A stretch of 64,000 nucleotides of DNA, taken from positions 66,758-130,757 of IMG/VR virus record IMGVR_UViG_3300025986_000001, one strand, 5' to 3'. This DNA is from a virus. Its lineage: Duplodnaviria; Caudoviricetes. Below are positions 1 through 59,678 of this stretch, piece after piece. Every line of letters starts with the position of its first letter. The first letter of the stretch is position 1. A program made the translations under genes and the position numbers. The notes beneath the pieces are model-generated. The model was not told where the DNA came from. It saw only the letters and a program-made list of their open reading frames with translations, and made no database searches.

Positions 1-117
1 CCACTCGACGATCGCGATAACCGGCTTGCTCATGTCGATCTCCTCGTTCTCCGTACGCACCGTGCGCCGGTGGCGTCCCGCCCGGCCAGCGCCGGGCGAG
101 CACCATCATGCCCACGG

Positions 118-426
118 TCAGATCAGGTCGCGAACGTGCGCCATAGCCAGCCGGAACGGCTCGTCATCCTCGTCGTGACTGAAACCGGCATTGGGTTTCA
201 GCAGCGCGCGGAAGATGTCGTGATGCACATCCTCGGGCTCGCCGTCGCCGTCGCCATGCATCATGATCACGTGTCCGGCGGCGTCCGTCCGTCCGGCGAT
301 CACGAACACTGCGGCGATGCTCTCGATCTCCTCGCAGGTCATTGCCGAGAAGGCGTTGCCCACCCTGATGGCCATCAGGGTGTCGGCCATGCCATCCACG
401 GCCGACGCCAGCTGTGCTGAACTCAT
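118..426 (-). CDS. hypothetical early protein
   Basis: ATG (MSSAQL) with purine-rich RBS directly after a repeat copy. Confidence 0.75.
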   Translation of the reverse strand: MSSAQLASAVDGMADTLMAIRVGNAFSAMTCEEIESIAAVFVIAGRTDAAGHVIMMHGDGDGEPEDVHHDIFRALLKPNAGFSHDEDDEPFRLAMAHVRDLI

Positions 427-519
427 ATGTATCCCTCTCTGTTCCCCGAACGCACCATGCGCCGGTGGCGAGCGACGCCGACCATCGACCGGCGTCGCCA
501 CCATCACGCGCAGGGGGGG

Positions 520-783
520 TCAGGTCAGGCCCGGCTCACGCGGGGCCACGGTGAACCCGCCCTCGTCCAACTTGTCGCCCAGGTCCCCGCAGTCGCTGTT
601 TTTCCGCAACTCGTTACGGACCTTCTCCCATTCGACAATGGCGATCTCCGGCACTCGCCATGCCGACACGTCGCCGCCGCCGTGCAGCGCCGCCAGTCCC
701 AGCGACGCGGCTGCCTCGGTGTTCGGGCACGCCACCAGCAGCGCGGATTCGTTGTCGCTCAACAGCACGTAGACATTTCCCAT
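520..783 (-). CDS. hypothetical early protein
   Basis: MGNVYV start, GAGGGAGA RBS. Confidence 0.75.
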   Translation of the reverse strand: MGNVYVLLSDNESALLVACPNTEAAASLGLAALHGGGDVSAWRVPEIAIVEWEKVRNELRKNSDCGDLGDKLDEGGFTVAPREPGLT

Positions 784-968
784 GATCTCTCCCTCACAGA
801 TTCCCATCGCGCTCGCACGGCGATGGTGCGGGCACAGGCCTAGGCCTGTGCCCGCACCATCATCCGGACGCCTTGCCCAGATCTTCACGGGTCAGCCGTT
901 CGACGCCCGGCCCGGCCGTCCAGTGGGTATCCGACCCGACTTGGAGACGACAACCTCGCGCACACCCA

Positions 969-1277
969 CTACGCCTCCGCCCAGAACACGGCGACCCCGC
1001 CGACGGTGCGGGCCAGCGCCAGCGCCGCATCGAGGTCGCTGACAAAAAGTGCGCACGAGCCGCAGGCCTGAATTCCCTCGTTAGTATTCATCGCCTCCAA
1101 CGCCCCCGGCACCGGCGAGAACTCGCAGGTGTCGCAGTCGCCGTGCGGCACCGGCGACGGGAGCAGGGCCGGGCCGTTGAACCAGTCCACCGGCTGTCCG
1201 TCAACCTCGACCCACGGGTCGGTGCCGTCCGCGATCAGCGCCTCGGTCGGGGTGCCGTCATAGATCGTGCGTCGCAT
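969..1277 (-). CDS. hypothetical protein with two CxxC pairs
   Basis: MRRTIY start after repeat; CDTC...CGSC. Confidence 0.75.
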   Translation of the reverse strand: MRRTIYDGTPTEALIADGTDPWVEVDGQPVDWFNGPALLPSPVPHGDCDTCEFSPVPGALEAMNTNEGIQACGSCALFVSDLDAALALARTVGGVAVFWAEA

Positions 1278-1362
1278 GGGTGATCCTCTCTCCGGGCGCA
1301 CCGTGCGCCGGTGGCGGACGACGCAGGACATCGACCTGCGTCGTCACCATCATCCGCGCGGC

Positions 1363-1668
1363 TCAGCCCAGGCCTTCACGGGTCAGCCGTTCGACGCCCG
1401 GCCCAGCCGTCCAGCAGGTACCCGGCCCGGCCTGGTGGCTTTCCCGGATGTACACCACATCGGCGCGCGGGTCGGTCAGGAATCCCCGGGCGATCTCGCG
1501 CGCCTTGGCCAGTGCCTTGGCCTGTTCTTCGTCGCCGCCGTCGGCCGGTGTCGTATCGGCGTAGACATCCATGTCGCCGAACATCCCGCCTTCGGGCAGG
1601 TAGCGGCCTTGTTTGTCCACCGGATGAATGTGATAGCCGATCCGGTACGGCTTACTGACGTAGTTCAT
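1363..1668 (-). CDS. hypothetical early protein
   Basis: MNYVSK start, ATGA overlap with upstream gene. Confidence 0.7.
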   Translation of the reverse strand: MNYVSKPYRIGYHIHPVDKQGRYLPEGGMFGDMDVYADTTPADGGDEEQAKALAKAREIARGFLTDPRADVVYIRESHQAGPGTCWTAGPGVERLTREGLG

Positions 1669-1901
1669 CCCGCCGGTTCCTCGTCGCGGTCCTCGCTCAG
1701 AATCGCCCGGATCGCCTCCAGGTCCGGGGTGTCCGTGCAGATCAACTCCCGGATGGCGCGCACCTGTGGCACCGTGACGTTGAGCCACTTCGAGCTTGCT
1801 TCGTCACCGGTGATCTTCAGAGTCAGCGCGTGCCGCTCCGGATGACCGGCCAGCGCCCGCTGAATCTCGCCTCGGACATAGGTCTCGTGATACTCATCCA
1901 T
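1665..1901 (-). CDS. hypothetical early protein
   Basis: MDEYHE start after repeat and RBS. Confidence 0.75.
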   Translation of the reverse strand: MDEYHETYVRGEIQRALAGHPERHALTLKITGDEASSKWLNVTVPQVRAIRELICTDTPDLEAIRAILSEDRDEEPAG

Positions 1902-1988
1902 GCCGAACTCTCCCTTCCCGTACGCACCGTGCGCCGGTGGCGAGCGGCGCCGGCCATCGACCGGCGTCGCCACCATCATCCGCGCGGC

Positions 1989-2192
1989 TCAGTCCTCGTC
2001 GTCATCCTCGGCGACGGCTGCCCGCCAGAGCGCACAGACCTCTTCCACGACCTCTTGCTGCCGCAGGCTCAGATCCTCCGTGTGCCCGGCGTAGAGCACC
2101 TCCGCAAGGGTGTGTAGCGCGGTCTCGATGCTGGCTCCGCTCATCTGTGCAGCGAGCGAGCCTTCGGGGAAGTCCTTGATTACGTAAGCCAT
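1989..2192 (-). CDS. hypothetical early protein
   Basis: MAYVIK start after repeat and RBS. Confidence 0.75.
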   Translation of the reverse strand: MAYVIKDFPEGSLAAQMSGASIETALHTLAEVLYAGHTEDLSLRQQEVVEEVCALWRAAVAEDDDED

Positions 2193-2262
2193 GTCGCCGA
2201 TCCCTTTCCCGAACGCACCGTGCGCCGGTGGCCAGCGGCCGGGCTCACACCCGGCCGGACCA

Positions 2263-2457
2263 TCATCCGCGCGGTGTCCAGGCGGCAGGCGCGAACCTAC
2301 CGCGAGACAGCCAGTCATCCAGGTCGCCGAACGCCTCGATCACCTCATCACCGGCGTCCTTCACGTGCGTGATCGCGGTGACATCGGCGATAGCGATCAC
2401 GTGTTCCAGCTCGGCAAGCGCCGCGCGCAGCCGGGCCAGGGCGGCATCAGGATCCAT
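2263..2457 (-). CDS. hypothetical protein (MDPDAAL...LDDWLSRGRFAPAAW type)
   Basis: ORF with RBS; its stop codon lies inside the repeat's TGATGGT. Confidence 0.75.
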   Translation of the reverse strand: MDPDAALARLRAALAELEHVIAIADVTAITHVKDAGDEVIEAFGDLDDWLSRGRFAPAAWTPRG

Positions 2458-2487
2458 GATCTTCTCTCTTCCTGCTCGTGCGCCGGA

Positions 2488-2784
2488 CTACGCCAGCGCT
2501 TCTCGGGCGATGTTCTGCTGTCGGGTGGTGGTTTTGCTGTACCGGGCTTCCGGCAGCCGGACACTCCCATCGACCAGTACCCACGCAATCGGCGTGGCGT
2601 AGGAGTACACCGTGTAGACGACCTCCCGCCGCGCCACGTCGGCCTCGTATCCGTCCCGATCGGCATTGCTCAGCTGATGATCGCTGGCCAGTCCACCACC
2701 GGCCCGGCCGGACATGCTGGCGGACAGGAACGCCCGCCGGTCGCGGATAGCGTCGACGATGTCGTCGCGGTTCATGCTCGGCAT
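2488..2784 (-). CDS. hypothetical early protein
   Basis: MPSMNR start; YTVYSYATPIAW...YSKTTTRQQ motif. Confidence 0.8.
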   Translation of the reverse strand: MPSMNRDDIVDAIRDRRAFLSASMSGRAGGGLASDHQLSNADRDGYEADVARREVVYTVYSYATPIAWVLVDGSVRLPEARYSKTTTRQQNIAREALA

Positions 2785-2917
2785 ATTGATCTTTCTCGTC
2801 TCTCCGTACGCACCGTGCGCCGGTGGCCACCGGCCGGACCGAAGTCCGGCCGGACCATCACACCCACGGTCAGCAGTCAGCGCCCAGCTTGCGATAGACC
2901 TGACCATCAGCTCAGGG

Positions 2918-3301
2918 TTACCGGCCAGATTCGGGCACACCCGCACCCTTGATCTCAGGGCAGTAATGCTTGGTCCGGCTTTTGCCGTCGACCACGCCCA
3001 GCGAATACCACTCATCGACTCGGACCGTCGCGCTTCCGCGCACCTCCGACCGCACCTCGGCCACCTCCGGCGGGTAATCGGCCAGGATCACCCCGCGCGC
3101 ATCGGCGAACGCGTCCACCTGGCCGATGTAGTACGCGGCGGCCTCGCGTGGCTGCCCCAGCCAGACCACCTGGCTGTTACCGTCCATGATCCGAGATCCG
3201 GCCCCGAGATCGGTCCCGAACTCGGCCTCGGCCACGTAGTTGTTGCTCAACGCGCGTGCATACGCGCTGACGGTGCGGACGTGCTCCTTGGTAATACGCA
3301 T
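2918..3301 (-). CDS. hypothetical protein, paralogue of 4386-4733
   Basis: MRIT start; shared VWLGQPREA.AYY.GQ. Confidence 0.75.
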   Translation of the reverse strand: MRITKEHVRTVSAYARALSNNYVAEAEFGTDLGAGSRIMDGNSQVVWLGQPREAAAYYIGQVDAFADARGVILADYPPEVAEVRSEVRGSATVRVDEWYSLGVVDGKSRTKHYCPEIKGAGVPESGR

Positions 3302-3378
3302 TCGAGTACCCCTTTCTCCGGCGCTCCGTGCGCCGATGGCATCAACCACGACCTATCCGGCCGGCCGCGGTCGCACCA

Positions 3379-3789
3379 TCATCCGCGCGGTCGCACCACC
3401 AGCACTGCCCCGAACCGGCCGACCAGCGGATGCACCGGCTCCGTACCCGGCCACATCAGCGGCCACGTCGCGCTCAGCGCGGCCTCGCCGACCCCGTCCA
3501 GGGTGTGATACTGCCGTGCGGTGAAATCCACGTTCACCGGCTCGCCGTCGACCACCACCCGTGTCCACACGTGATAGTCGGCCCACGGATGCTCGGCTTC
3601 GGTCGCCCGGACCACGCAGGCCGCCCCGCCGCGCTCGCCGACGTACGCGGCGAACCGGGCTCCCGCCTGATCACAAGCCCACGTGTCGGTGGCATCGTCC
3701 TCGTCCGCGCTGACATCCGGATAGCGGCGCCAGACATCGGCCATCGGCTCCGCGCTCGCGAACCCGTCGATCAGCTCCTGCAGTTCCAT
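3379..3789 (-). CDS. hypothetical protein, possible Cys-His-Asp (transglutaminase/papain-like) fold
   Basis: WAC...YHVW...VDFTARQY pattern; fold is inference. Confidence 0.6.
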   Translation of the reverse strand: MELQELIDGFASAEPMADVWRRYPDVSADEDDATDTWACDQAGARFAAYVGERGGAACVVRATEAEHPWADYHVWTRVVVDGEPVNVDFTARQYHTLDGVGEAALSATWPLMWPGTEPVHPLVGRFGAVLVVRPRG

Positions 3790-3857
3790 CCTCAACTACC
3801 TCTCTCGTCGCGTTGTGCGCCGGTGGCCGACGGCCGGGAGTGTGCCCGGCCGGACCA

Positions 3858-4130
3858 TCATGCGAACAAAGCATCCTGTTGCGGGTGAACAACCTGCGAT
3901 TGGTAGACGACCACCGAGACGACGTGTGGCGTTTCATCATCGCCGACCAGCGTGTAAGTGGCCGTCCAGAAGTGGCCACCTCCGGTCATGTCACAGTGCT
4001 CGACCTCGATGGCAGGATTCCTGCATGCGCGCAGGAATCCTGCCTCCTGGCCACCGTCGGAGAAGGTGACCACCACCGGCTCCCCGATCATGCTGGCGTA
4101 ACGGTCACTGCTGCTTTCGACGTCACTCAT
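3858..4130 (-). CDS. hypothetical early protein
   Basis: ORF lying between two repeat copies. Confidence 0.7.
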   Translation of the reverse strand: MSDVESSSDRYASMIGEPVVVTFSDGGQEAGFLRACRNPAIEVEHCDMTGGGHFWTATYTLVGDDETPHVVSVVVYQSQVVHPQQDALFA

Positions 4131-4206
4131 GCCCGTAACCCGCTATCTCCGTCGCACCGTGCGCCGGTGGCACCGACCCTGGCCCGTTCCGGCCAGGGTC
4201 GCACCA

Positions 4207-4386
4207 TCATCCGAACGGCCCGATACCGAACACGTCGGCCACCCGCTTGATCAGCTCGTAGCACTGGCGATCGGTCTCTCGCGCTGCCGACGCGTCGGCT
4301 ACGTGGACCTCCGCCCACCCGAACACCGTCGCCAGGTCCTCGCGCAGCTGCGGCGTCACCTCTACCACACGGTTGCTTCCGTCCAT
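4207..4386 (-). CDS. hypothetical early protein
   Basis: MDGSNR start coupled to upstream stop; GAGG RBS. Confidence 0.65.
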   Translation of the reverse strand: MDGSNRVVEVTPQLREDLATVFGWAEVHVADASAARETDRQCYELIKRVADVFGIGPFG

Positions 4387-4733
4387 CAGCGTGCGCCGCC
4401 TCGGTATGCGCCGGTGCTCTTGCCCCGCGCGTACCACTTGGCGATGGACGCCTTCCGGCCGATGTCCAGGTTGATTTCGTCCCGGGCCTCCTGCACGTGG
4501 GACGGCAGGGGAACGTCGCCCAGGCCCTTCACGTCGCGGTACCCCTCGATCTGCCCGAGGTAGTAGGCCGTCGCCTCGCGCGGCTGACCCAGCCAGACCA
4601 GCTGCTCATCGCCGTCGATGACCCGCGCGCCGTGCCCGAGGTCCGCGCCGACATTGCAGACGCTGATCCCCCCGTCGCTGATCTCGTTGGCGTAGCGGCT
4701 CATGTCCTGCGCGGTCGTGCCTGTGATGCGCAT
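4386..4733 (-). CDS. hypothetical protein, paralogue of 2918-3301
   Basis: MRITGT start; shared motif. Confidence 0.75.
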   Translation of the reverse strand: MRITGTTAQDMSRYANEISDGGISVCNVGADLGHGARVIDGDEQLVWLGQPREATAYYLGQIEGYRDVKGLGDVPLPSHVQEARDEINLDIGRKASIAKWYARGKSTGAYRGGAR

Positions 4734-4820
4734 CGAAATACCTCTCTCCGTGCCCGGCCTCGTGCCGTGCTCCGGCGGCAACCCGCCCGGCCTGCCGGGC
4801 GAGCACCGTCACGAGCACGG

Positions 4821-5234
4821 TCAGCCCTCATCTCCGCGCAAGTCGAGCGCGGCCATGCTCAGCTCATCGGAGTTGAGGTACGCCCACTCGGCCACAGCGG
4901 CCGAGAACAGCCAGCCGTCGACCGGTTCGCTCGCGCCCATGGTGGCCTGATACGCCTCGGCTTCAGCGGTTAGGTATCCACACAGCACGGCAAGCGCCTC
5001 GCGGATGGTCTCGCCCGGTTCGAGGCGCGTGGCGCGCGGCGACAGCGCCACGTCGTTGCCGTAATACTCCCCACCGGGGAAGTCGACGAAGTACGACACG
5101 CGCGCCTTGTCACCGTCGTACCCGGTGATCCAGGCACTGAGACGGCCACCGGTCGCACGTTCCGGATCGATGGCGATCGAGGGGATCAGGCGCGGGCCGA
5201 TGCTCAGCGGCGCGGTCAGAACGTAGCTGGTCAT
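4821..5234 (-). CDS. hypothetical early protein
   Basis: MTSYVL start, GGAGAGAGG RBS. Confidence 0.8.
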   Translation of the reverse strand: MTSYVLTAPLSIGPRLIPSIAIDPERATGGRLSAWITGYDGDKARVSYFVDFPGGEYYGNDVALSPRATRLEPGETIREALAVLCGYLTAEAEAYQATMGASEPVDGWLFSAAVAEWAYLNSDELSMAALDLRGDEG

Positions 5235-5325
5235 GATTGCCTCTCTCCGGTCGGCGGTAGCGCCGTATGCCGGTGGCCAGCGGCCGGAATACTGCCCGGC
5301 CGGACCATCACACATACGGAACCGT

Positions 5326-5418
5326 TCAGATTTCCGCATCCCAGCCGTACAGCCATCCCTCACGGCGCACCCGACGTGCCCAGGACGCGAGGTTGTTGAC
5401 GAGAATGTTGAGGAACAT
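5326..5418 (-). CDS. 30-aa peptide MFLNILVNNLASWARRVRREGWLYGWDAEI
   Basis: Not in the ORF track; fills the gap between two repeat copies and has an AAGGG RBS. Confidence 0.55.
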   Translation of the reverse strand: MFLNILVNNLASWARRVRREGWLYGWDAEI

Positions 5419-5498
5419 ATCTTTACCCTTCTATCTCCGGCCGTGCGCCGGTGGCTCCCGGCCGGAGCATGCCCCGGCCGGAACCATCACACACACGG

Positions 5499-5771
5499 TC
5501 AGGACAACCGGGCCGCCGACGGTGACCAGGCCGACAGCAGATGATCGGCCGCATCGGCGCGCGTCTCGTAACCGACGGTCCACGCCTGCCTCCCCTCGTC
5601 ACCGGCCAGGAGGTACCCCCACCCGTCGACCCGCTGTTCGGCCCGTGCCACGTGTCCGGCCAGCCGACCGTCGTACTTGACTGGCGCGGCCGTACGCGTC
5701 GTGCCGTCCGGGTTCGCCACCTCGACCGCCCGCCCGTAACTGATCTTGTCGTGGTTCCATAGGAAACGCAT
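5499..5771 (-). CDS. hypothetical early protein
   Basis: ORF with GAGGGA RBS. Confidence 0.7.
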   Translation of the reverse strand: MRFLWNHDKISYGRAVEVANPDGTTRTAAPVKYDGRLAGHVARAEQRVDGWGYLLAGDEGRQAWTVGYETRADAADHLLSAWSPSAARLS

Positions 5772-5780
5772 GGCAATCCC

Positions 5781-6026
5781 TCAATTCCCGGTGGGAGCGC
5801 TCGGATCGTCAGCCCACCACAAACACCGTGTGTCGGCGTAGTAGCGCGTGCCGCCATCCCATGACACGGTGACGCCGTACGTGCAGTGCGCGGCGCCGGG
5901 AGTGACGACCCCGCGCTTACCATCGCAGTCGATCACCGCGCGCCCTTCGTTGGTCGTGTTGCCCTGGTCAACCCCGAACAGGAAATGCCCGCCGTGATCG
6001 GGCTTGTCGCCGAAGCTGTGCGCCAT
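5781..6026 (-). CDS. hypothetical early protein
   Basis: MAHSFG start after repeat. Confidence 0.7.
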   Translation of the reverse strand: MAHSFGDKPDHGGHFLFGVDQGNTTNEGRAVIDCDGKRGVVTPGAAHCTYGVTVSWDGGTRYYADTRCLWWADDPSAPTGN

Positions 6027-6111
6027 GGCGCACCCGCCTTTCCCCGCACGCACCGTGCGCCGGTGGCCACCGGCCGGGCAAGCGCCCGGCCGGACCATCA
6101 CACACACGGTC

Positions 6112-6378
6112 TCACTGCACGTCCGAGTAGTCCTCGACGTCGTGTCGGTGCTCGACCCGCCCCTCGCGGTAGACGATTGTGCCCGGCTCGTCCAGCTCCT
6201 GCACCCGAATCGGGTGCATCCACACGTCCCGATGCGCGTTGTTCTCGCGCGTCGTGATCTCGTCTCGCAGGGCGCGCCGCGCCGCGATCAGCGGCGAGAC
6301 ACACTCAACAGGCACCCGAACGTGCCAGACGCCGGAACCGTTGGCCCAAGTGGTCACTCGCGGGTCATCCATGGTCAT
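6112..6378 (-). CDS. hypothetical early protein
   Basis: MTMDDP start after repeat. Confidence 0.7.
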   Translation of the reverse strand: MTMDDPRVTTWANGSGVWHVRVPVECVSPLIAARRALRDEITTRENNAHRDVWMHPIRVQELDEPGTIVYREGRVEHRHDVEDYSDVQ

Positions 6379-6453
6379 CCCTTCGCTCCGTACGCACCGT
6401 GCGCCGGTGGCCAGCGGCCGGAGCATGCTCCGGCCGGACCATCACACACACGA

Positions 6454-6846
6454 TCAGCGGTTGTCGATGTAACCCGGCCACGTTGGCGGGTGCGCCACGA
6501 TCGTCAGCTCCCGGTGGTCGATCTTGCGTCGGCCGCACCGGCGGCACTCCAGCGGACGGCGGCTGTGCGCCTCGAACCCGGGCAGATCACACCGCCCGTA
6601 CCCATCGGCGGGCCGGTCGTCGCCGCGCTCGTTCCAGTCCCAGCCGTGCGCCTCAGCGACCCTTTCCCGGCGCGCCTCGATGCCGTACCCCTTGAGCGAG
6701 GTGACATCAACGCCGTTGAGATCCAGCAACCTGTCGATCATGGTGCGGGTGCAGACACCCAAGATGTCGAACGCCCGCATGGTGGTCGTTGCCTGCGCGA
6801 TGCGGTCATTGATCCCCGCCACGTGCTCATCGGTGATGTGACCCAT
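6454..6846 (-). CDS. hypothetical protein with C-terminal Cys cluster
   Basis: MGHITD start, GAGGAA RBS. Confidence 0.7.
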   Translation of the reverse strand: MGHITDEHVAGINDRIAQATTTMRAFDILGVCTRTMIDRLLDLNGVDVTSLKGYGIEARRERVAEAHGWDWNERGDDRPADGYGRCDLPGFEAHSRRPLECRRCGRRKIDHRELTIVAHPPTWPGYIDNR

Positions 6847-6946
6847 GTAAATTCCTCGCTTTCCCTCTCCGATGCCCGTGCATCGGTGGCATCGACAGCG
6901 GCCGATTCGGCCGGCCGCTGTCGCACCATCCATGCGCGGCGATGGA

Positions 6947-7270
6947 TCAGACCTGCTCGACGATTACCCCGATCAAGTCCAGGTCCGAGCGGACCAGGGT
7001 GTACGCCTCATCCTCGGCGTACCAACCGGCCTCATGCGCGCCATCGTGACGCAGGTGCTCGGCGTCACGAGCCTCGATCAACCCGGTGTAGGTGGTGTAA
7101 GCGCAGGTGCCGCAAGACAGCGGCACGCGGGTAGTGGCGACCGCGCGGGGCACCCGGCACTCTTCGTCGGTGTTGCCGTAGCGCAACCGGTCGAAGAGCT
7201 CGGCCAGGATGTCAGCGCGCACCGCGCCGGTCGATCCCTTGGCATCGGCCAGCAGTCCATCGTTAACCAT
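6947..7270 (-). CDS. hypothetical early protein
   Basis: MVNDGL start after repeat. Confidence 0.7.
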   Translation of the reverse strand: MVNDGLLADAKGSTGAVRADILAELFDRLRYGNTDEECRVPRAVATTRVPLSCGTCAYTTYTGLIEARDAEHLRHDGAHEAGWYAEDEAYTLVRSDLDLIGVIVEQV

Positions 7271-7355
7271 GTCGATCCCTGTCTCTCTCCGGCCTGTGTG
7301 CCGGTGGCCAGCGGCCGGAGCATGCTCCGGCCGGACCATCACACCCACAGCCGTC

Positions 7356-7784
7356 TTACGCGCCCTGCGGCGGGAACGACGGACCGGTGTCGCGCGCCGA
7401 CCCCACGCCGTTGCGAGACGCGCCGACCGTGCCGTTGACGCGCCCCACGTCGAACATGTTCGTCCGTGCGATCATGTCGTGCGCCCGTACGGTCATGCCG
7501 CGCACAGACTCGCCCCTCCATCGTCCGTCATGAGCGCGCACCTTCGTAGGCGTTTTCACATGCTTGGACGCGACCCCGCCCGCCGGAAGCGGATCCGCCC
7601 AACCGGCGGCATCGACATCCGTGCCCAGCTCGAAATGCGCCCGGCCGCCGTCGGCGAACGTGACGATCCGTGCCGGTGCCGACCACGTCGATTTGACCGC
7701 GGTGAACGTGCCGACTCCGTCGGTTGCCGTAGCGACTGTGCGCCCGCCGATGACCATGCCTCGGCGGATGGATGCTGCCTTCAT
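7356..7784 (-). CDS. hypothetical protein, first gene of the leftward array
   Basis: MKAASI start, AGGAGA RBS. Confidence 0.7.
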   Translation of the reverse strand: MKAASIRRGMVIGGRTVATATDGVGTFTAVKSTWSAPARIVTFADGGRAHFELGTDVDAAGWADPLPAGGVASKHVKTPTKVRAHDGRWRGESVRGMTVRAHDMIARTNMFDVGRVNGTVGASRNGVGSARDTGPSFPPQGA

Positions 7785-7943
7785 CGAATTTCTCCTGTCC
7801 TGCCCAAGACCTAGGCAGAGCGATTGTCCGATCATATGGAGCGAGGACCGTCTATGACGGGGGTATCGCGATGATCAGACAATCACCCTTGCTCATGCCT
7901 TGCTCATACACTGCACCGTTGGGTTACGCATCGACTCTTGTCG

Positions 7944-8351
7944 TGTCCCCTAGCTATCTGCTAGCGCCGATCCCTGCGGGACCGTTCCGGGGGCGGGAGC
8001 CTGAACGCTGCCCCTCGTGCCACGTCGTGAACCGATGCCCGGACCTTGCATCCGGTCGCGTTAATGTGCTGCGTGACGACTCCGGTTGCTGGCCGGGGGA
8101 TCGTCCGCGAGATGAGCAGCTTAGACACAGAGCCTTGTATGAATGCCTGCCCATATAGAGATGCAGCGTCGGGATTCGCACCGTTTCATCGCACGCCGTG
8201 ACGTTTACGATCATCTACCTCTGCCCGCTCCGCCCGATTGTCCTGCGCCCACTGCTTGATCATCGCTTGTCTGTCCCCTAGCTATCTACTAGCGCCGATC
8301 CCGTGCGGGACCGTTCCGGGGGCGGGGACCTGAACGCTGTCCCTCATGCCA
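7944..8351. repeat. about 80-bp imperfect direct repeat (7944-8022 and 8272-8351)
   Basis: tgtcccctagctatct.ctagcgccgatccc...cctgaacgctg.ccctc.tgcca occurs twice. Confidence 0.9.
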
Positions 8352-8957
8352 GAAATATCGATGTCAGTTCAGATGGGTCTAGTACTGATCGATAGGAGAG
8401 AACGGGATCGCTGATCAGCGATGAACTTTCCGCCTTCTCTCACACGTCCGTACGCTTCACAGCGTTCGGGTGCCTCGGCGGAACCTCCCCCACGTGCAGG
8501 GGACACCTCCGCCTTATTCCAGAGCCAGCGCTGTGACCGGTCTCCCGTGGGATGTACGCCGCAGAGGGGCGCTTTCCTCAACCATCGGGACCGCATCGCC
8601 GCCCCGTTCAGATCGGGGACCGCGCTACGTGCTCTTGTGTTGTCAGGTGAACGGGACCGATTCCGCATCCCCCCGCTGCGCTAGCCGGAGGATGGGATTC
8701 CCGCTGCCGCCCTGCCTCGGCGACAGAACAAGTAGGCGCCTCCGACCCATACCGCGTCAAGTCGGACTAGACATTTTCTGGATTTTTCTTGTTTCCCCTG
8801 GTCAGCGACTTGCGCCATCGACACACCCGCTTTCACTTACGGGTGAACCAATCGGCGTTCAGCGATCATTTTGCCCTATATGGACGGTCATTTTCCGACC
8901 CTTTCTAGCACCTTTACCCGATGCCACACGAACCGATAAGCCGATGACAAGCGACTA

Positions 8958-9350
8958 GTTTTTCCGTAATTCGAGAATCCTCGATTTCATCCGGGGAGAC
9001 GGTTACTGGATCGCAGAGGAAGCCCCCTCTATAAGCCCCCTCTATATAAGCCCTTCTATATATTACTGTTCTACAATAAATAAGATCAACTATGTATCAC
9101 ATGAATAAATAATAGGAACGCACACGCACGCGTTGCACATCATGCGCTACATTGTCAAATCGACATGTCATGAGTGAGCGCAGCATCAATGCGTACTGAT
9201 CTTAGATATGATTATATGCACATATTCGTGAATAGAATCATGGAAGAAAATCAGATCGCATATTTAAATAAATCCACATTCGAAAATTGAAGATCGTAGC
9301 GTGTGGAGCGATCGAGACCTTTAGGTGGTTGAATTTGAATTCGCAAATAT
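8958..9350. other. AT-rich non-coding island with three tandem AAGCCC(C/T)-type repeats; candidate origin or genome-end region
   Basis: Sharp GC drop; repeats aagccccctctat (x2) and aagcccttctat at 9020-9063. Confidence 0.5.
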
Positions 9351-9505
9351 TGACGACCCCTGGGCGGGTACCCCGTGGGGGTGCCCGGCGCCGCCGGGCC
9401 GGGGCGTTCTGGTTGTCGCTGTGCCTACGATTTAGGGTACTTGGGAATTGCCCATACTGGGCACATGGGAGGCTCCCTTAAGGGGCGAAGTGGTATTGTC
9501 CACCT

Positions 9506-9709
9506 ATGGCAAAGTCCCGGAAGATGCTGGCTGTCGACGCGCGGGGGCGCATCACGCTTGGCTCGTTGGCAGGCGATCACGAAATCTTCCTGGCCAACGT
9601 GAGCGCCGACAACGTGATCACTCTGACGCCGGCGGAGCTGATCCCCGTCGTCAAGCCCAGACCGCGCCGGCGGACCAAGTCGATCCCCTCAGTCGAAGGA
9701 GATCAGTGA
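9506..9709 (+). CDS. AbrB/SpoVT-like small DNA-binding protein
   Basis: VDARGRITL...ITLTP motif. Confidence 0.6.
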   Translation: MAKSRKMLAVDARGRITLGSLAGDHEIFLANVSADNVITLTPAELIPVVKPRPRRRTKSIPSVEGDQ

Positions 9710-10371
9710 AGTCCGTAGAGGTCGTTCGCAGAACAAAGCCGTGTGGCTGCGCGTGCGGGTACAAGGTGAGCGGTCCGGGCGCATATCTGCCCGGACACTC
9801 GCCGCGGGCGCGTAAGCCAGCCCCGCGTTGCGCCTGCGGGTGCGGCGAATTCGTCGCGCTTCGCAAGAGCCTCTACCGAAAGGGGCATCGCCCTGTCGAC
9901 CGAGATCCGCAGGAGTTTTGGACGCGTACGGAAGAGACGGCCTCCGGATGCCGGGTATGGACGGGGAGAGTGGATGACAAGGGCTACGGGGTAGTGAGCT
10001 GGGAAGGCAAGACCTGGGGCGCGCACCGCCTTGCTTGGACGCTGACCTTCGGCACGGTCTCGGACGGACAGTGGGTGCTGCATCACTGCGACAATCCGCC
10101 GTGTGTGAATGCTTCGGGCGGCTGCCTATACCTCGGAGATCACGAGCAGAACGTGGCCGACAAGGTCGATCGTGGCCGACAGGTCGATGGTGAGCGTCAC
10201 GGCCGAGCAAAACTGACCGCAGAGGAGGTTGAGGAGATCAGGCGCCGGTACATCTTTCCGTCCTGCGAGGGCGCGCATGACAGCAACGCTCGAACGCTGG
10301 CCAAGGAGTTTGGAGTCGACCGTAAACAAATCCAGCGGTTGGCTCGGGGTGAAGCCTGGAAGCGGCCCTAA
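9706..10371 (+). CDS. HNH homing endonuclease
   Basis: AHRLAW...VLHHCDNPPCVN...N motif; two N-terminal CxCxCG motifs; C-terminal HTH-like region; GTGA overlap. Confidence 0.85.
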   Translation: MKSVEVVRRTKPCGCACGYKVSGPGAYLPGHSPRARKPAPRCACGCGEFVALRKSLYRKGHRPVDRDPQEFWTRTEETASGCRVWTGRVDDKGYGVVSWEGKTWGAHRLAWTLTFGTVSDGQWVLHHCDNPPCVNASGGCLYLGDHEQNVADKVDRGRQVDGERHGRAKLTAEEVEEIRRRYIFPSCEGAHDSNARTLAKEFGVDRKQIQRLARGEAWKRP

Positions 10372-11315: not shown

Positions 11316-11798
11316 ATGGGCGAGACCCTCCGGTTCGGCTTCGCCAGCGACTTCCTCAGCAACTTCTATCCGTCGCCGATGAGCTGGTGCCCAGCCCCGG
11401 TGGTGGTCCACGAGGAGACGGGGGTCACCGGCATGCAGTACCGCACCAACGAGCACTTCTTCAACGCCCACAAGACCATCGACCTGAACAGCCGCTGGTA
11501 TGTGGCCTCGGCTACGACGCCCGCGGAAGCCAAGCGCCGGGGCCGCGCGGTGCAACTGCGCCCCGGCTGGGACAACTCGGTGCGCTACGAGGTGATGCGG
11601 CAGGGGTTGGCGCTGAAGTTCGCCGACCCGGTACTGCGCCGGCTGCTGCTGGATACCGGCACCGCGGAGCTCGTCGAGCAGACCACCTGGCACGACACCC
11701 ACTGGGGGATCTGCGTCTGTTCCGCACACGGCGGCCGCGGGCTGAACCATCTCGGCGCGATGCTGATGCAGTTGCGTGAGCAGCTGCGCGATACGTGA
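11316..11798 (+). CDS. NADAR (YbiA-like) family protein
   Basis: FLSNFY, EHFF.AHK, AKRRGR, LKF, LLDTG..ELVE, D.HWG, G.N.LG.MLM.LR. Confidence 0.9.
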   Translation: MGETLRFGFASDFLSNFYPSPMSWCPAPVVVHEETGVTGMQYRTNEHFFNAHKTIDLNSRWYVASATTPAEAKRRGRAVQLRPGWDNSVRYEVMRQGLALKFADPVLRRLLLDTGTAELVEQTTWHDTHWGICVCSAHGGRGLNHLGAMLMQLREQLRDT

Positions 11799-33648: not shown

Positions 33649-34482
33649 CCGCTGCCGGGTTCGCGCGTTGATTCTCCTGAGGTGAGTAAGTCATCCACTG
33701 GGAGGGTCCATGCGGCCGGTGTGCTGCGGCAACACGGGCCAGGAGCATTTTGTGACTCCTGGCCCGTTGTCGGTTGTGCTGTGATACGGTGTCCCACAAG
33801 TCAAACACTCTTCCTGAGTTGTGCACCCGGGTACGACGACCAGGGCGGTCCGACTACGTCCCCGGTCTGAGGCACCTGTCCTTCGCCCTGATCGGATCCC
33901 CGGGAATGGTCGGAAGAACGGGGGTGACCGTCTGTGGCCTGCCCGGGGTCGTCGACCAGGAGCGGGCCTCACACCTGATGGGCCGATGGAACCCCAGGCG
34001 CAACATCAAGATCCACGAACTGCGCCCATGCCAGAGGTGCCATCAGTTCATCAAGAACTCCATCCGCCTGACCTGAAGGGATCGACCTGGCGTGAGAACG
34101 GCAACCCCCAGCACGACACTGCGCCCGCCCACCCGTGTCGTCGTCACGTTCTGCCTCACCGGCCGGCCTGACAAGCCCGGCCCGATCTGCACCCGCATCA
34201 AGCTGCACGGCGGTCACTGCTGCGACGAGATCCTCGGCGAGTCGTGGAACGCGCGCGGCCGCGACGCAGTCTGCAGGGCCGATCACGACCATTCCGCGGA
34301 GAAGGGCATGGCCGGCCGATGAGACCGGAAGAGGTTCCCGAAGAGTTGATCGAGATCCTGGACCGTCGCGCCGGCAAGGCTCACAGCCGCTTCGGTAGTG
34401 CTGTCTCCGCCCTGGCCGAGATCCTGACCAGATACGACCAGCTCCGCACCACACCCGACGACAACAACCCCAAGGAATCGTC

Positions 34483-37400
34483 GTGACTGACCCGTTCGTG
34501 CACCTGCACAATCACACCGAGTACTCGATGCTCGACGGCTACCAGCAACACAAGGAGCTGGCGGCCTGTGTCAGCCAGCTGGGCCAGCCCGCGGTCGCAA
34601 TGACCGATCACGGCAACATGTTCGGCGCGTTCAGCTTCTACCACGCGATGACCAAGGCCGACGTCAAGCCGATCATCGGCGTGGAGGCCTACATCGCCCC
34701 GTCCAGCCGGTTCAACCGCACCCAGGAGTTCTGGGACCCGCGCGGCCGGCGCACCAAGAAGGACCGCGACACCGACGAGGGTGAGAGCAAAGACATCGCC
34801 GGCGGCGGCCGCTTTACCCACCTGACCCTGCTGGCGAAGAACGCCACCGGGCTGCGGATGCTCTACGAGCTGACCGGGCGCGCCTCCATGGAAGGCCAGT
34901 ACCCGCTGGGCAAGGCCCGGATGGACCGCGACCTGTTCGAAGAGGTCATCGGCCGGCACGGGCAGCACCTCATCGCCTCCACCGGCTGCCCATCCAGCGA
35001 GGTGCAGACCCGGCTGCGGCTGGGCCAGTACGACGAGGCCCGCCAGGCCGCCGGCTACTACCGGGAGCTGTTCGGGCCGGAGAACTACTTCATGGAGGTC
35101 ATGGACCACGGCCTGTCCTTCGAGAAGGAAACCCGGGTCGGCCTGCTGAAGATCGGCCAGGAGCTGGGCATCGCGCCGCTGGCCACCAACGACGCGCACT
35201 ACGTCTACGCCGAGCAAGCCCACGGCCATGATTGCCTGCTTTGTATCGGGACGGGCAACTACCTCGCCGACACCGACCGGCTCAAGTTCGACGGCGGCGG
35301 CTACTACATCAAGAGCGCCGAGCAGATGCGCGCGCTGTTCGACGACGAGGTCCCCGGCGCCTGCGACAACACGTTGCTGGTCGCCGACATGGTCACCTCC
35401 TACGAGCAGATGTTCGCCTTCCGCGACCGGATGCCGCACCCGCCGGTGCCCGACGGGTTCACCGAGGAAAGCTACCTGCGGCACCTGGTCGACGCCGGCC
35501 TGACCCGGCGCTACGGCGCGCCGGTGCCTGCCGAGGCCCGCGAGCGGGCCGAGTACGAACTGAAGATCATCCTGCCGCTGGATTTCGCCGGCTACTTCAT
35601 CATGCTGTTCCTGCTGTGCAGGTTCATGCGTGAGCGGGGCATCCGGTTCGGCCCGCGCGGTTCGGCCGCCGGCTCGATCGTCGTGTACGCGCTCGAGATC
35701 GCCGACATGGACCCGCTGAAGCACAAGCTGATGTTCGAGCGGTTCATGAACCCAGAACGCATCTCGCCGCCGGACATCGACCTGGACATCGACGAGCGCC
35801 GCCGCGACGAGGTCGTGCAGTACGTGGTGGACACCTACGGCGCGCAGAACGTCAGTCAGATCATCACCTTCGGCCGGCTGAAGACCCGTGCCTCGCTGAA
35901 GGACTCGGCGCGCATCCAGCAGCTGCCCTACGCCGCCGGCGAGCGGGCGGTCAAGGCGATCCCGCCGGACGCGGCCGGGTTCGGCGTCACCTTCGATGAG
36001 ATCTTCGACGAGACGCACGCCCGCTTCGAGGAGGGTCGGGCCTTCCGGGACATGGTCGTGGCGGACCCGGAGGTGGAGCAGATCCTGCAGGTGGCCCGGC
36101 TGGTGGAGGGCCGGGTGCGCCAGACCGGCGTGCACGCCTGCGGGGTGATCGTTTCCAGCGAGCCGTTGCTGGGCCAGATCCCGGTGTGGCTGGACGTGCC
36201 CAAGGAGGCCGACCGCAGGAAAGGCAAGGTCGAGGCGCTGCTGGCCGGGCACGAGTACCCGGACCTGGAGAGCATGGGCCTGCAGAAGATGGATCTGCTG
36301 GGCCTGCGCAACTGGACGGTCGTCGACGACGCCATCAAGATGATCGAGACGAATCACGGTGTACGGGTCACGGTGGAGCAGCTGGGCGAGCTCGACGACC
36401 CGGAGGTCTACCGGATGCTGGCCCGCGGCGAGACAGCCGGCGTCTTCCAGCTCGAGGGCTCCGGCATGCAGTCGCTGCTGCGGATGATGAAGCCCACCAC
36501 CTTCGAGGACATCATGGCCGTCGGCGCGCTGTACCGGCCCGGGCCGATGGGCATGAAGAGCCACGAGAACTATGCGCTGCGCAAGAACAACCGGCAGCCG
36601 ATCACCCCGATCCACCCGCAACTGGAAGAGCCGCTGCGAGAGGTGCTCGCGCCCACCTACGGCGTCATCTGCTACCAGGAGCAGGTCATCGACGCAGCCA
36701 TGCTGGTGGCCGGCTACACCCGCGGCCAGGCTGACCTGCTGCGCAAGGTCATGGGCAAGAAGAAGAAGGATCTGCTGGCCAAGGAGTACGAGCCGTTCAG
36801 CACGGCGATGCTGGCCAACGGCTTCTGCCAGGAGGCCGTGGACGCGCTCTGGGACACCCTGGTCCCGTTCGCGGAGTACGCGTTCAACAGGGCGCACACC
36901 GCCTGCTACGGCCGGCTGGCGTATGTCACCGCCTGGCTGAAGCTGCACTACCCGGCCGAGTACCTGGCGGCGCTGCTGACCAGCGTCGGCGACAAGAAGG
37001 AGAAGGCGGCACTGTACCTGGCCGAATGCCGCCGGCTGGGCATCGGCGTGCTGCCGCCGGACGTCAACCAGAGCCAGGCGGCGATGACCGTCGTCGACGG
37101 GAAGATCCGTTTCGGACTCAGCGCGATCCGTGATGTCGGCTCCGGGGTGGTGGCCGCGGTGCTCAAGGGCCGCCAGGACCGGCCCTACGAGTCGTTCTTC
37201 GACTTCATCACCCGGGTCCCGGCGGCCGGCTGCACCAAGAAGGCGGTGCTCGGGCTCATCGAGGCCGGCGGCTTCGATGAGTTCGGCACCCCGCGGCGCT
37301 GCCTCACGATGATCCACGAGCAGGCGGTGGAGGCGGCCGCCAAGGACAAGAAGGCCGAGGCGCGCGGCGCGTTCACCCTCTTCGAGACCCTCGACGACAA

Positions 37401-38076
37401 GCCCAGCAGCCTCGAGGTGGCCGGTGTCGTGATGCCGGACTTCCCGGAGTGGAAGAAGGAGGAGCTGCTGGCGTTCGAACGGACCCGGCTCGGCCTGTAC
37501 GTCACCGGTCACCCGCTCGACGGCGCCGAGAAGGTGCTGGCCGCCTACCGGACCTCGACGCTGCTGGAGGTCCGCGAGAGCGAAGTCCTCGAAGGCGACG
37601 TGCACATCTCCGGCATCATCACCGGCTACGCAGTCCTGATGGCCAAGAGCGGCCCGATGGCGACCTTCGAGCTGGAGGACATCGACACCTCGATCCGCTG
37701 CGTGGTGTTCCCGAAGACCTACCAGCTGCTCGGCGGCGCGCTGGGCAACGACATGATCGTCAGCATCAAGGGCCGGCTGAGCGAATACGACGGCGACGCC
37801 AACATCATGGTCGACCGGGTGCTGGTGCTCAACCTGCAGGACGGCGAGATCCCGGTGGTGCTGCGCATCCCGCAGCCGCGGATCACCGAGCCGCTGGTGG
37901 CTCAGCTGAAGCTGATCCTGCAGCGGCACCCCGGCGAACGGCCGACCCGCATCGAGGTCGAAACCCCGTCGGGGAAGAAGACCCAGTACGCGCTGCCCGG
38001 CTTCCCCGTGCTGCCCGGGGTGGAGTTCCGGACGGAGATCAAGGAGCTGCTCGGCAAGGGTGCGGTCCTGGCCTGA
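34483..38076 (+). CDS. dnaE: DNA polymerase III alpha subunit
   Basis: PHP domain HLHNHTEYSMLDG; RGSAAGS; PDIDLD; KMDLLGL; YRPGPM; YAFNRAH; C-terminal OB fold. Confidence 0.97.
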   Translation: MTDPFVHLHNHTEYSMLDGYQQHKELAACVSQLGQPAVAMTDHGNMFGAFSFYHAMTKADVKPIIGVEAYIAPSSRFNRTQEFWDPRGRRTKKDRDTDEGESKDIAGGGRFTHLTLLAKNATGLRMLYELTGRASMEGQYPLGKARMDRDLFEEVIGRHGQHLIASTGCPSSEVQTRLRLGQYDEARQAAGYYRELFGPENYFMEVMDHGLSFEKETRVGLLKIGQELGIAPLATNDAHYVYAEQAHGHDCLLCIGTGNYLADTDRLKFDGGGYYIKSAEQMRALFDDEVPGACDNTLLVADMVTSYEQMFAFRDRMPHPPVPDGFTEESYLRHLVDAGLTRRYGAPVPAEARERAEYELKIILPLDFAGYFIMLFLLCRFMRERGIRFGPRGSAAGSIVVYALEIADMDPLKHKLMFERFMNPERISPPDIDLDIDERRRDEVVQYVVDTYGAQNVSQIITFGRLKTRASLKDSARIQQLPYAAGERAVKAIPPDAAGFGVTFDEIFDETHARFEEGRAFRDMVVADPEVEQILQVARLVEGRVRQTGVHACGVIVSSEPLLGQIPVWLDVPKEADRRKGKVEALLAGHEYPDLESMGLQKMDLLGLRNWTVVDDAIKMIETNHGVRVTVEQLGELDDPEVYRMLARGETAGVFQLEGSGMQSLLRMMKPTTFEDIMAVGALYRPGPMGMKSHENYALRKNNRQPITPIHPQLEEPLREVLAPTYGVICYQEQVIDAAMLVAGYTRGQADLLRKVMGKKKKDLLAKEYEPFSTAMLANGFCQEAVDALWDTLVPFAEYAFNRAHTACYGRLAYVTAWLKLHYPAEYLAALLTSVGDKKEKAALYLAECRRLGIGVLPPDVNQSQAAMTVVDGKIRFGLSAIRDVGSGVVAAVLKGRQDRPYESFFDFITRVPAAGCTKKAVLGLIEAGGFDEFGTPRRCLTMIHEQAVEAAAKDKKAEARGAFTLFETLDDKPSSLEVAGVVMPDFPEWKKEELLAFERTRLGLYVTGHPLDGAEKVLAAYRTSTLLEVRESEVLEGDVHISGIITGYAVLMAKSGPMATFELEDIDTSIRCVVFPKTYQLLGGALGNDMIVSIKGRLSEYDGDANIMVDRVLVLNLQDGEIPVVLRIPQPRITEPLVAQLKLILQRHPGERPTRIEVETPSGKKTQYALPGFPVLPGVEFRTEIKELLGKGAVLA

Positions 38077-38167
38077 ACGCTGCGCGCGCGTGACGGTGCG
38101 CCCGGGTGCGAGCCCGGGCGTGGCCGCCGGCGCACGAGGCGCTGGGGAACAGGAAGCGAGAAAGATC

Positions 38168-59600: not shown

Positions 59601-59678
59601 GCCGGACCCATTCCCACCCTGAAGACCCGCACGCCGTCACGGCAGCGGGCCTTCGCCTTTTCCCGCATGGGAGCCGCT

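Follow-up and report, generated by a model that had tools for sequence, protein, structure and literature searches.

The left end of the viral (Caudoviricetes) DNA analysed here, a window of 64,000 nucleotides from IMG/VR virus record IMGVR_UViG_3300025986_000001, raises the question of why nearly every junction in a long array of tiny genes carries the same kind of hairpin. The window is the last 64 kb (bases 66,758-130,757) of a linear record of 130,757 bp (GC content 67.5%, about 93% complete by CheckV estimate), labelled G000 in the gene comparisons below. A preliminary description of the window had proposed either an integron-like platform for capturing and shuffling genes or an RNA-processing code. 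The interpretation favoured here, with about even confidence and on the basis of sequence comparison, is that the element may be a promoter-less intercistronic mRNA hairpin serving in processing, stability or insulation, whose conserved arms double as recombination linkers.

The element recurs well beyond chance expectation: a simple pattern matches exactly at 14 places in the window, where 0.62 would be expected. A search with an nhmmer profile followed by a covariance model (R1) found 35 copies in the whole record, every one of them in sense with the flanking genes, with scores of 40-80 bits compared with 13-15 bits for the antisense strand of the same loci. Of these, 33 lie on the minus strand at genome 54,060-74,110, forming an array of about 20 kb that extends 12.7 kb past the left edge of the window, off which the preliminary description had seen it run. 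The 17 copies previously counted in the window were recovered at 55-7353 as 16 strong copies and one degenerate copy, and the accompanying estimate of about 21 tiny genes also held: the hairpins are separated by about 21 small open reading frames (ORFs) of 30-137 residues on the minus strand (window 1-7270), the array continuing to genome 54,060.

Read leftwards, in the direction of the genes, the minus-strand series begins with copy 1 at 7289-7353 (lower stem variant CTGTG/CACAG; R1 67.3 bits; fold -34.8 kcal/mol) and a long-stem variant at 6871-6942 (39.1 bits; fold -45.9 kcal/mol), followed by copies at 6392-6456 (76.9 bits), 6048-6112 (79.8 bits), 5436-5501 (71.4 bits), 5258-5322 (lower stem variant CCGTATG/CATACGG, identified by its R1 score of 63.6 bits and its fold) and 4760-4823 (GACGG/GCCGCC covariant; 67.4 bits). 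The upstream TGA lies within the 5' arm in the next two, at 4152-4221 (59.8 bits) and 3808-3872 (65.9 bits), and again at 2213-2277 (74.7 bits), with a second long-stem variant at 3321-3393 (52.6 bits) and a further copy at 2808-2872 (78.4 bits) in between. The series ends with copies at 1922-1990 (65.2 bits) and 1296-1364 (60.2 bits), the degenerate copy at 809-874, which keeps a perfect hairpin and has lost the conserved 3' arm (22.9 bits), and copies at 450-518 (62.4 bits) and 55-120 (75.7 bits). An outlying copy on the plus strand (38079-38142; 50.1 bits) directly follows the gene for the DnaE-type DNA polymerase (34399-38076), in the sense orientation of the plus-strand genes there. A lone minus-strand copy was also observed at genome 45,554-45,619 (L006:18554-18619; 40.3 bits), 8.4 kb downstream of the end of the array and amid replication-region genes.

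Beyond this genome, the element is found in soil-type metagenome contigs, in which a gapped two-arm pattern detects arrays. The covariance model, a check suggested in the preliminary description, added 247 copies in 31 metagenome loci, co-oriented within each locus. Window positions 1-9000 had no match to any of 4227 Rfam covariance models at E ≤ 1. Searches of IMG/VR with an exact 19-mer and a loose gapped pattern returned single chance matches and nhmmer found no real copies there, while the gapped pattern returned 83 single chance matches and no arrays in GTDB genomes. The element is also absent from relatives sharing the DnaE polymerase, both IMG/VR contigs (33-48% identity) and Saccharomonospora phage PIS 136 (47%).

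The element is a single long imperfect hairpin of about 65 bases and about 23 pairs (mean 23.3), with a folding energy of about -40 kcal/mol. Its minus-strand consensus runs from the upstream stop codon through CCGTGAGC, G, TG, A and TGGT to a variable stem-loop, and then through GCCA, C, CG and GCGCACGG to N-GCG-ACGGAGA and the ATG. The lower stem, which has a single mismatch, is formed by CCGTGNGC, upstream of TGATGG, and GCGCACGG; the structure continues upwards through a bulged G, two pairs, of which one is U-G, an A/C mismatch and the TGGT/GCCA helix, which closes with a second U-G, to a bulge of 1-2 nt in the 3' strand, 8-12 variable GC-rich pairs and a loop of 4-6 nt at the top. Among 266 distinct copies the arms are CCGTGAGCGTGATGGT and GCCACCGGCGCACGG, and the spacing between them, mostly 24-27 nt (range 15-52), is itself a helix. 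When folded as single sequences, all 33 aligned copies from this genome formed the same hairpin of 58-66 nt (mean -40.5 kcal/mol, z -3.9), in agreement with RNAalifold, which gave 17 pairs, 11 of them with compensatory changes. Two features of the preliminary description are thereby retained: the TGGT/GCCA helix with its U-G pair and 1-2 extrahelical bases is seen in these folds, and the inner stem, as the unaided folds and the covariation described below confirm, varies in sequence and remains paired.

A third feature, a separate small hairpin formed by CGCAC-G-GTGCG, was rejected. Its one-base loop is impossible, and the palindrome is maintained in only 3 of 64 copies with a changed CGCAC. 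Instead, GCGCACGG pairs with the upstream CCGTGNGC in a lower stem that had been overlooked, and the changed CGCAC bases covary with the upstream CCGTG arm, giving TCGTG/CACGA 11 times and the further covariants CTGTG/CACAG, CTGCG/CGCAG and CCGTATG/CATACGG. The same counts bear on the idea that the element is a double-stranded DNA operator or stoperator, bound by a dimeric repressor at the palindrome of each junction, for which the stoperators of cluster A phages and the conserved inverted repeats of phiC31 provide parallels. In its favour, 135 of 268 distinct copies have a perfect 11-nt palindrome, but the loss of this palindrome in nearly all copies with a changed CGCAC, in favour of pairing with the CCGTG arm, and the compensatory changes and strand bias, which binding to double-stranded DNA leaves unexplained, make this reading very improbable.

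The evidence for pairing comes from a covariation set of the best 150 of the 247 metagenomic copies, 147 of which are distinct. Standard pairs occupy 98.3% of cells in these 147 copies, compared with 91.5% after column shuffling and 32-60% after displacement of the partner by 1-3 columns. Two-sided changes occur in 10 of the 18 pairs, and the T-A pair of GATGG/GCCACC is replaced by C-G in 11 copies (136:11) without a single-sided intermediate. The alignment of the 147 copies was fitted to the model, which favours structure; the unaided folds and the lower-stem counts are independent of the alignment.

The pairing also distinguishes the two strands. Of 265 distinct copies, 225 fold more stably as the sense strand (-40.3 against -35.5 kcal/mol; Wilcoxon p = 4e-37), with 694 wobble pairs in the sense strands and 351 in the antisense strands. 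The two conserved wobbles are U-G in 144 and 145 of the 147 metagenomic copies and almost never C-G or U-A, and the unpaired A and the bulged G are almost invariant. All 247 metagenomic copies are co-oriented with their ORFs, as are all 35 genomic copies, including the one on the plus strand. The strand bias and the invariant wobbles together indicate that the structure is read on the message-sense strand, and the wobbles imply that the sequence or geometry of the lower half is recognised, beyond mere pairing. A structure at the level of RNA appears well supported.

A specific reader, which could be host RNase III or a phage protein, is suggested by the invariance of the wobbles, the bulge and the mismatch. 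The second of these possibilities is the main rival to the favoured interpretation: the hairpin would be an mRNA site for a dedicated phage protein, such as a translational repressor, a processive antiterminator or a repeat-specific endoribonuclease like Cas6 or ToxN, that controls or cuts all junctions. Retention of U-G pairs, an unpaired A and a bulged G where C-G or U-A would also pair is typical of RNA recognised by protein, and in five arrays the operon opens, ahead of the first hairpin, with the gene for a conserved protein of 142 residues. However, no candidate protein was found, the first-gene protein has no family match and no fold match better than E = 0.6, and known antitermination sites occur once or twice per operon as against the 33 copies of this array. 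A dedicated phage protein is consequently a possible but doubtful reader.

The 5' arm of the hairpin carries three in-frame TGA codons (TGA CCG TGA GCG TGA TGG), and the upstream stop codon falls at -13 (57 cases), -7 (26), -1 (25) or -14 (28) relative to the G of GAYGG, so that the foot of the hairpin touches or includes the stop codon. The ORF list and the pattern search agree with the earlier observation that at 2263, 3379, 3858 and 4207 the upstream TGA is that of the repeat itself. The 3' end of the hairpin lies about 10-20 nt before the next ribosome-binding site (RBS), and the start codon follows the 3' arm by 31-35 nt, preceded by GCG-ACGGAGA.

Signals for transcription initiation or termination are missing from this arrangement. 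Upstream of the arm there is codon periodicity and no other conservation, including no TANNNT and no -35 motif; a consensus promoter scan found one site in 10 kb (2.0 expected) and none at the elements; and a consensus terminator scan found three sites in 10 kb, no more than the shuffled expectation, again with none at the elements. No U-tract follows the hairpin. Simple promoters, the alternative raised in the preliminary description, are disfavoured by this lack of signals in the arm-flank conservation and the consensus scans. GAYGGT was considered as a -10 motif, its A and last T being invariant, and was rejected as the principal explanation: nothing is conserved upstream of it, and a start inside the stem would omit the 5' arm, which covaries with the 3' arm.

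These results bear directly on the comparison with the PeSL elements of T4-type phages, in which a stem-loop and a Shine-Dalgarno motif lie between the orphan early genes of a hyperplastic region, and which by definition contain a strong sigma-70-like promoter and a terminator stem-loop (PMC2839356, PMC4122927). PeSL crossovers have been mapped at several positions in the motif, which fits homologous recombination (PMC2839356). Here too, the orphan genes of a variable region are separated by a stem-loop, a Shine-Dalgarno motif and a start codon, and the motifs border the gain, loss and replacement of genes between related phages. In contrast, no sigma-70-like promoter (-35, -10 and AT-rich upstream sequence) is detectable, and the hairpin, at about 23 bp, greatly exceeds the PeSL stem-loop in length; its lower half is fixed and its wobbles are conserved, and the sequence and host lineage are unrelated. 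In behaviour, the element is closest to the PeSLs, without their defining promoter.

A true PeSL-type module, combining a terminator or attenuator that lacks a U-tract with an unconventional phage promoter in the conserved 3' arm, is nevertheless improbable. In its favour, every gene is preceded by a conserved 3' arm and leader, about 26 nt in length, and a sigma-like signal exists in one of the larger phage proteins, a weak match to sigma-70 region 4 (E = 6.6e-5) and the single signal of this kind detected. Terminators without poly-U tails have also reportedly been described from the early region of actinophage phiC31. However, the 10-20 nt between the foot of the hairpin and the RBS leave no room for a -10/-35 promoter, no TANNNT is present, and the covariation of the lower stem requires the 5' and 3' arms to be transcribed together. 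Furthermore, mycobacterial RNA polymerase in purified form requires a U-tract to terminate (PMC3993855).

The preliminary description had named a fixed gene order in relatives as the finding that would speak against cassettes, and the relatives instead show an order that is scrambled between conserved anchors. The ORFs of 38 array-bearing metagenome loci and of G000 were grouped into 88 families with at least two members; the ORF calls are heuristic (GC content at third codon positions plus RBS), the families are BLASTP single-linkage clusters and the relatives are fragmentary metagenome contigs. The 142-residue first gene heads the array in five loci, and a distal block (F2, F3, F16, F21, F22, F9) closes it in six loci, with much the same order in each. 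Between these ends, the right neighbour belonged to the same family in 13 of 221 comparisons (6%) with an element between the genes and in 11 of 70 (16%) without one, although paralogues blur some gene-order comparisons. For example, G000 genes 20, 21, 22, 23 and 24 correspond to positions 5, 4, 12, 9 and 22 of locus L204 (41-71% identity), and genes 31, 33, 36 and 44 are colinear with its positions 19, 23, 25 and 27.

The ends of nucleotide homology blocks cluster at the borders of the elements: the share is 40% for left ends (5' arm) and 21% for right ends (RBS), compared with about 4% of the sequence. In five pairs sharing the same upstream gene (76-88% nucleotide identity), the similarity runs through the 5' arm and then stops, and the variable stems differ; in pairs with only the downstream gene in common, some stems are alike and others are not. 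In one recent event (94% identity over 548 nt) the whole hairpin stays with the upstream gene and the break lies directly after GCCACCGGCGCAC. Stem type is weakly tied to the upstream family (0.50 against a baseline of 0.40) and not to the downstream family; single-linkage clustering of the stem sequences merged into one large cluster and was of little use. The differing stems beside shared genes indicate that crossovers do not occur at one fixed nucleotide, and breakpoints fall on either side of the variable stem, not at the constant position that a cassette mechanism had been expected to leave. The pattern fits exchange by homologous or illegitimate recombination at any point of the conserved arms, like that mapped for the PeSLs (PMC2839356), and does not fit a single site-specific crossover. 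A direct repeat of 70 nt (875-944 and 1366-1435, 87% identity), which places the 3' end of the ORF at 1363-1668 before the degenerate copy at 809-874, is apparently the scar of an imprecise recombination event.

These breakpoints are also what separates the element from integron attC sites, which recombine as the bottom strand. An attC-like site, a single-stranded DNA fold cut and rejoined by a structure-specific recombinase with true excision and capture of cassettes, would share with the element its conserved outer arms, variable paired centre and extrahelical bases at fixed places, and integron cassettes resemble the array in their promoter-less ORFs of one orientation, with a stop codon in the first box and an order scrambled in relatives. 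The recent event, in which the hairpin moved with the upstream gene, is in line with such a mechanism, as is the possibility that the sense strand is the template for the lagging strand. Three of the four defining features tested, however, are missing: the R/L boxes, with neither R' (GTTRRRY) nor R'' (RYYYAAC) core sites; an IntI integrase with its extra domain, adjacent to attI and Pc; and a single fixed crossover at which the variable part travels with the upstream ORF, the stems differing beside the same upstream gene and being mixed beside the same downstream gene. The sole tyrosine recombinase of the phage (15022-16086, minus strand) is Xer-like, with best matches to XerD/XerC (about 109 bits) and 51 bits against the integron-integrase model TIGR02249, whose cutoff is 265; it lies 7.7 kb beyond the start of the array and is not divergent from it. 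Finally, attC folds as the bottom strand, whereas here the coding strand is favoured, a preference in which sequence makes DNA and RNA folding indistinguishable. An attC-like site is for these reasons decidedly improbable. Of the integron-like platform proposed at the outset, then, the shuffling is supported, with its 88 families, right neighbours kept in 6-16% of comparisons and conserved end anchors, and the integron part, which would call for attC boxes, an integrase other than an Xer-like recombinase, a fold on the other strand and fixed crossovers, is not.

A more speculative proposal, and a long shot, combines cutting of the message with movement of the genes. The hairpin would be the site of a phage-encoded structure-specific enzyme, itself hidden among the orphan genes, that cuts the early message at each junction, much as Cas6 cuts CRISPR repeats, and the same enzyme or a partner acting on the single-stranded DNA fold would mobilise single genes. 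If true, cassettes would be moved in a lytic-type actinophage by a self-contained system that does not depend on integron integrases.

In the favoured interpretation of a promoter-less intercistronic hairpin, the 20-kb block of small orphan genes would be transcribed leftwards as one message from the leader at about window 7800-8060, and at nearly every junction this message would fold into the hairpin of about 23 bp. The likeliest function would be punctuation of the polycistronic mRNA. The fixed lower half would be the recognition site of an RNase III-type double-strand-specific nuclease of the host, or of a phage factor. The hairpin left behind would shield the upstream cistron at its 3' end, and the structure would insulate the purine-rich RBS downstream from long-range pairing, whatever gene lies upstream. 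Such independence of context is what a shuffled array needs. The processing role is suggested by the length and imperfections of the hairpin, which match substrates of double-strand-specific RNases. Since the same 5' arm of 16 nt and 3' arm of about 26 nt plus RBS recur at each junction, these arms could in addition provide linkers of homology, recombination at which would swap whole genes between related phages with their expression intact.

A precedent for the processing role is the early region of phage T7, in which the RNase III sites R0.3 to R1.3 lie between the cistrons of a long polycistronic mRNA as imperfect hairpins that span about two helical turns and contain internal mismatches, and the cleaved hairpin stabilises the upstream message. 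The present elements resemble these sites as putative imperfect hairpins of at least about 20 bp (mean 23.3 pairs) lying between co-oriented ORFs without promoter or terminator signals. They differ in that the 33 lower stems of this array are nearly identical, whereas the five early T7 sites share little sequence.

Several observations weigh against a hairpin processed by host RNase III and shuffled through its arms. The near-invariant U-G pairs and the arms point to sequence-specific recognition, which is not obviously explained by RNase III alone, and a survey of 99 larger phage proteins turned up no RNase III, no RNA polymerase and no known RNA-binding family. If replication starts near window 9000-9400, the sense strand is the lagging-strand template on both arms, making the folding of single-stranded DNA compatible with the observed orientation. 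Moreover, every junction has an element, so that any whole-gene rearrangement is flanked by elements whether or not they caused it.

The array itself begins with the 142-residue first gene (7356-7784, minus strand), before the first hairpin; this array start also occurs in four other metagenomic loci (59-66% identity). The structure model of its product has a mean pLDDT of 56.7 and is confident only in an N-terminal beta domain of 60 residues, the tail being disordered. Its fold matches in the PDB (E of 0.6 or worse), mostly to small beta-barrels such as eIF5A/EF-P and CarD, were not counted as evidence. Upstream of this gene, alignment with the four related loci revealed a leader (7785-8060, minus strand) of which about 230 nt are partly conserved, and which likely holds, at about 7800-8060, a promoter for the whole array. 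Two copies of a repeated segment (CAGCGTTCAGG...GATAGCTAGGGGACA, about 65 nt) are present upstream of the first gene on the minus strand, at 7945-8012 and 8271-8340; the proximal copy, inside the conserved leader, could be a promoter, an operator or leader RNA. Among the array proteins, 20 had no Pfam family and one had distant homologues in Streptomyces, Gordonia and Rhodococcus phages. The smallest cassette is a micro-ORF of 30 codons with its own RBS (5326-5418, minus strand), the sole content between the hairpins at 5258-5322 and 5436-5501. Two minus-strand genes three cassettes apart, at 2918-3301 and 4386-4733, are paralogues of family F49, both starting MRIT, and represent an intra-array duplication.

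The array is the promoter-proximal part of a longer block of leftward genes spanning about genome 3 kb to 74.6 kb. This block is separated from the genes to its right by an AT-rich island at about window 9000-9420 with short direct repeats (GGGCTTATA-GAGGGGGCTT), which resembles an origin or control region; the GC content of window 8001-10000 is 57.5%, compared with 67% elsewhere. The record encodes a DnaE-type DNA polymerase, a DnaB helicase, a split terminase, HNH nucleases, three pectate-lyase-like tail proteins and the Xer-like tyrosine recombinase. Its nearest cultured relative by polymerase is Saccharomonospora phage PIS 136; as the identity is only 47%, the phage is classed as an uncultured actinophage. 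No close DNA relatives were found in phage and plasmid collections. The large subunit of the terminase is encoded in two ORFs on the plus strand (59601-62624), the first of which ends in a LAGLIDADG-like domain, making the insertion of an intein or homing endonuclease likely. A NADAR-domain protein is encoded on the plus strand at 11316-11798 (TIGR02464, 78.9 bits; the anti-phage NADAR model matched weakly).

Among actinophages, the closest layout is that of the SAS and ESAS elements of cluster K mycobacteriophages, which lie in one orientation just upstream of the start codons of unrelated gene families, the ESAS consisting of imperfect 17-bp inverted repeats with a variable spacer followed by an RBS-containing box (PMC3203893). 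Their function is still untested in the literature (PMC12699233). The present element shares the box with an RBS preceded by inverted repeats but differs in its sequence, the SAS having a 13-bp consensus (GGGATAGGAGCCC) 3-8 bp before the start codon where GCG-ACGGAGA is found here. The spacer of the ESAS is 4-13 bp and is not a covarying helix, in contrast to arms mostly 24-27 nt apart. In addition, the ESAS occupy 10-20 scattered genome sites with no reported role in shuffling, whereas the hairpin occupies nearly every junction of a 20-kb array. The element is a new family of a known general kind, without an Rfam family or a cultured carrier.

This family adds a well-supported structured element, with hundreds of independent copies, compensatory changes and a strand-specific fold. 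Its fixed lower stem with two conserved U-G pairs offers a precise target for work with RNase III, pull-downs and reporters, and the element may represent a compact natural "insulator plus RBS" part. For the biology of actinophages, it would extend to this group the principle known from T4-type phages, in which a repeated junction motif makes orphan early genes interchangeable; since the motif here has no promoter, the junction would have to work at the level of RNA.

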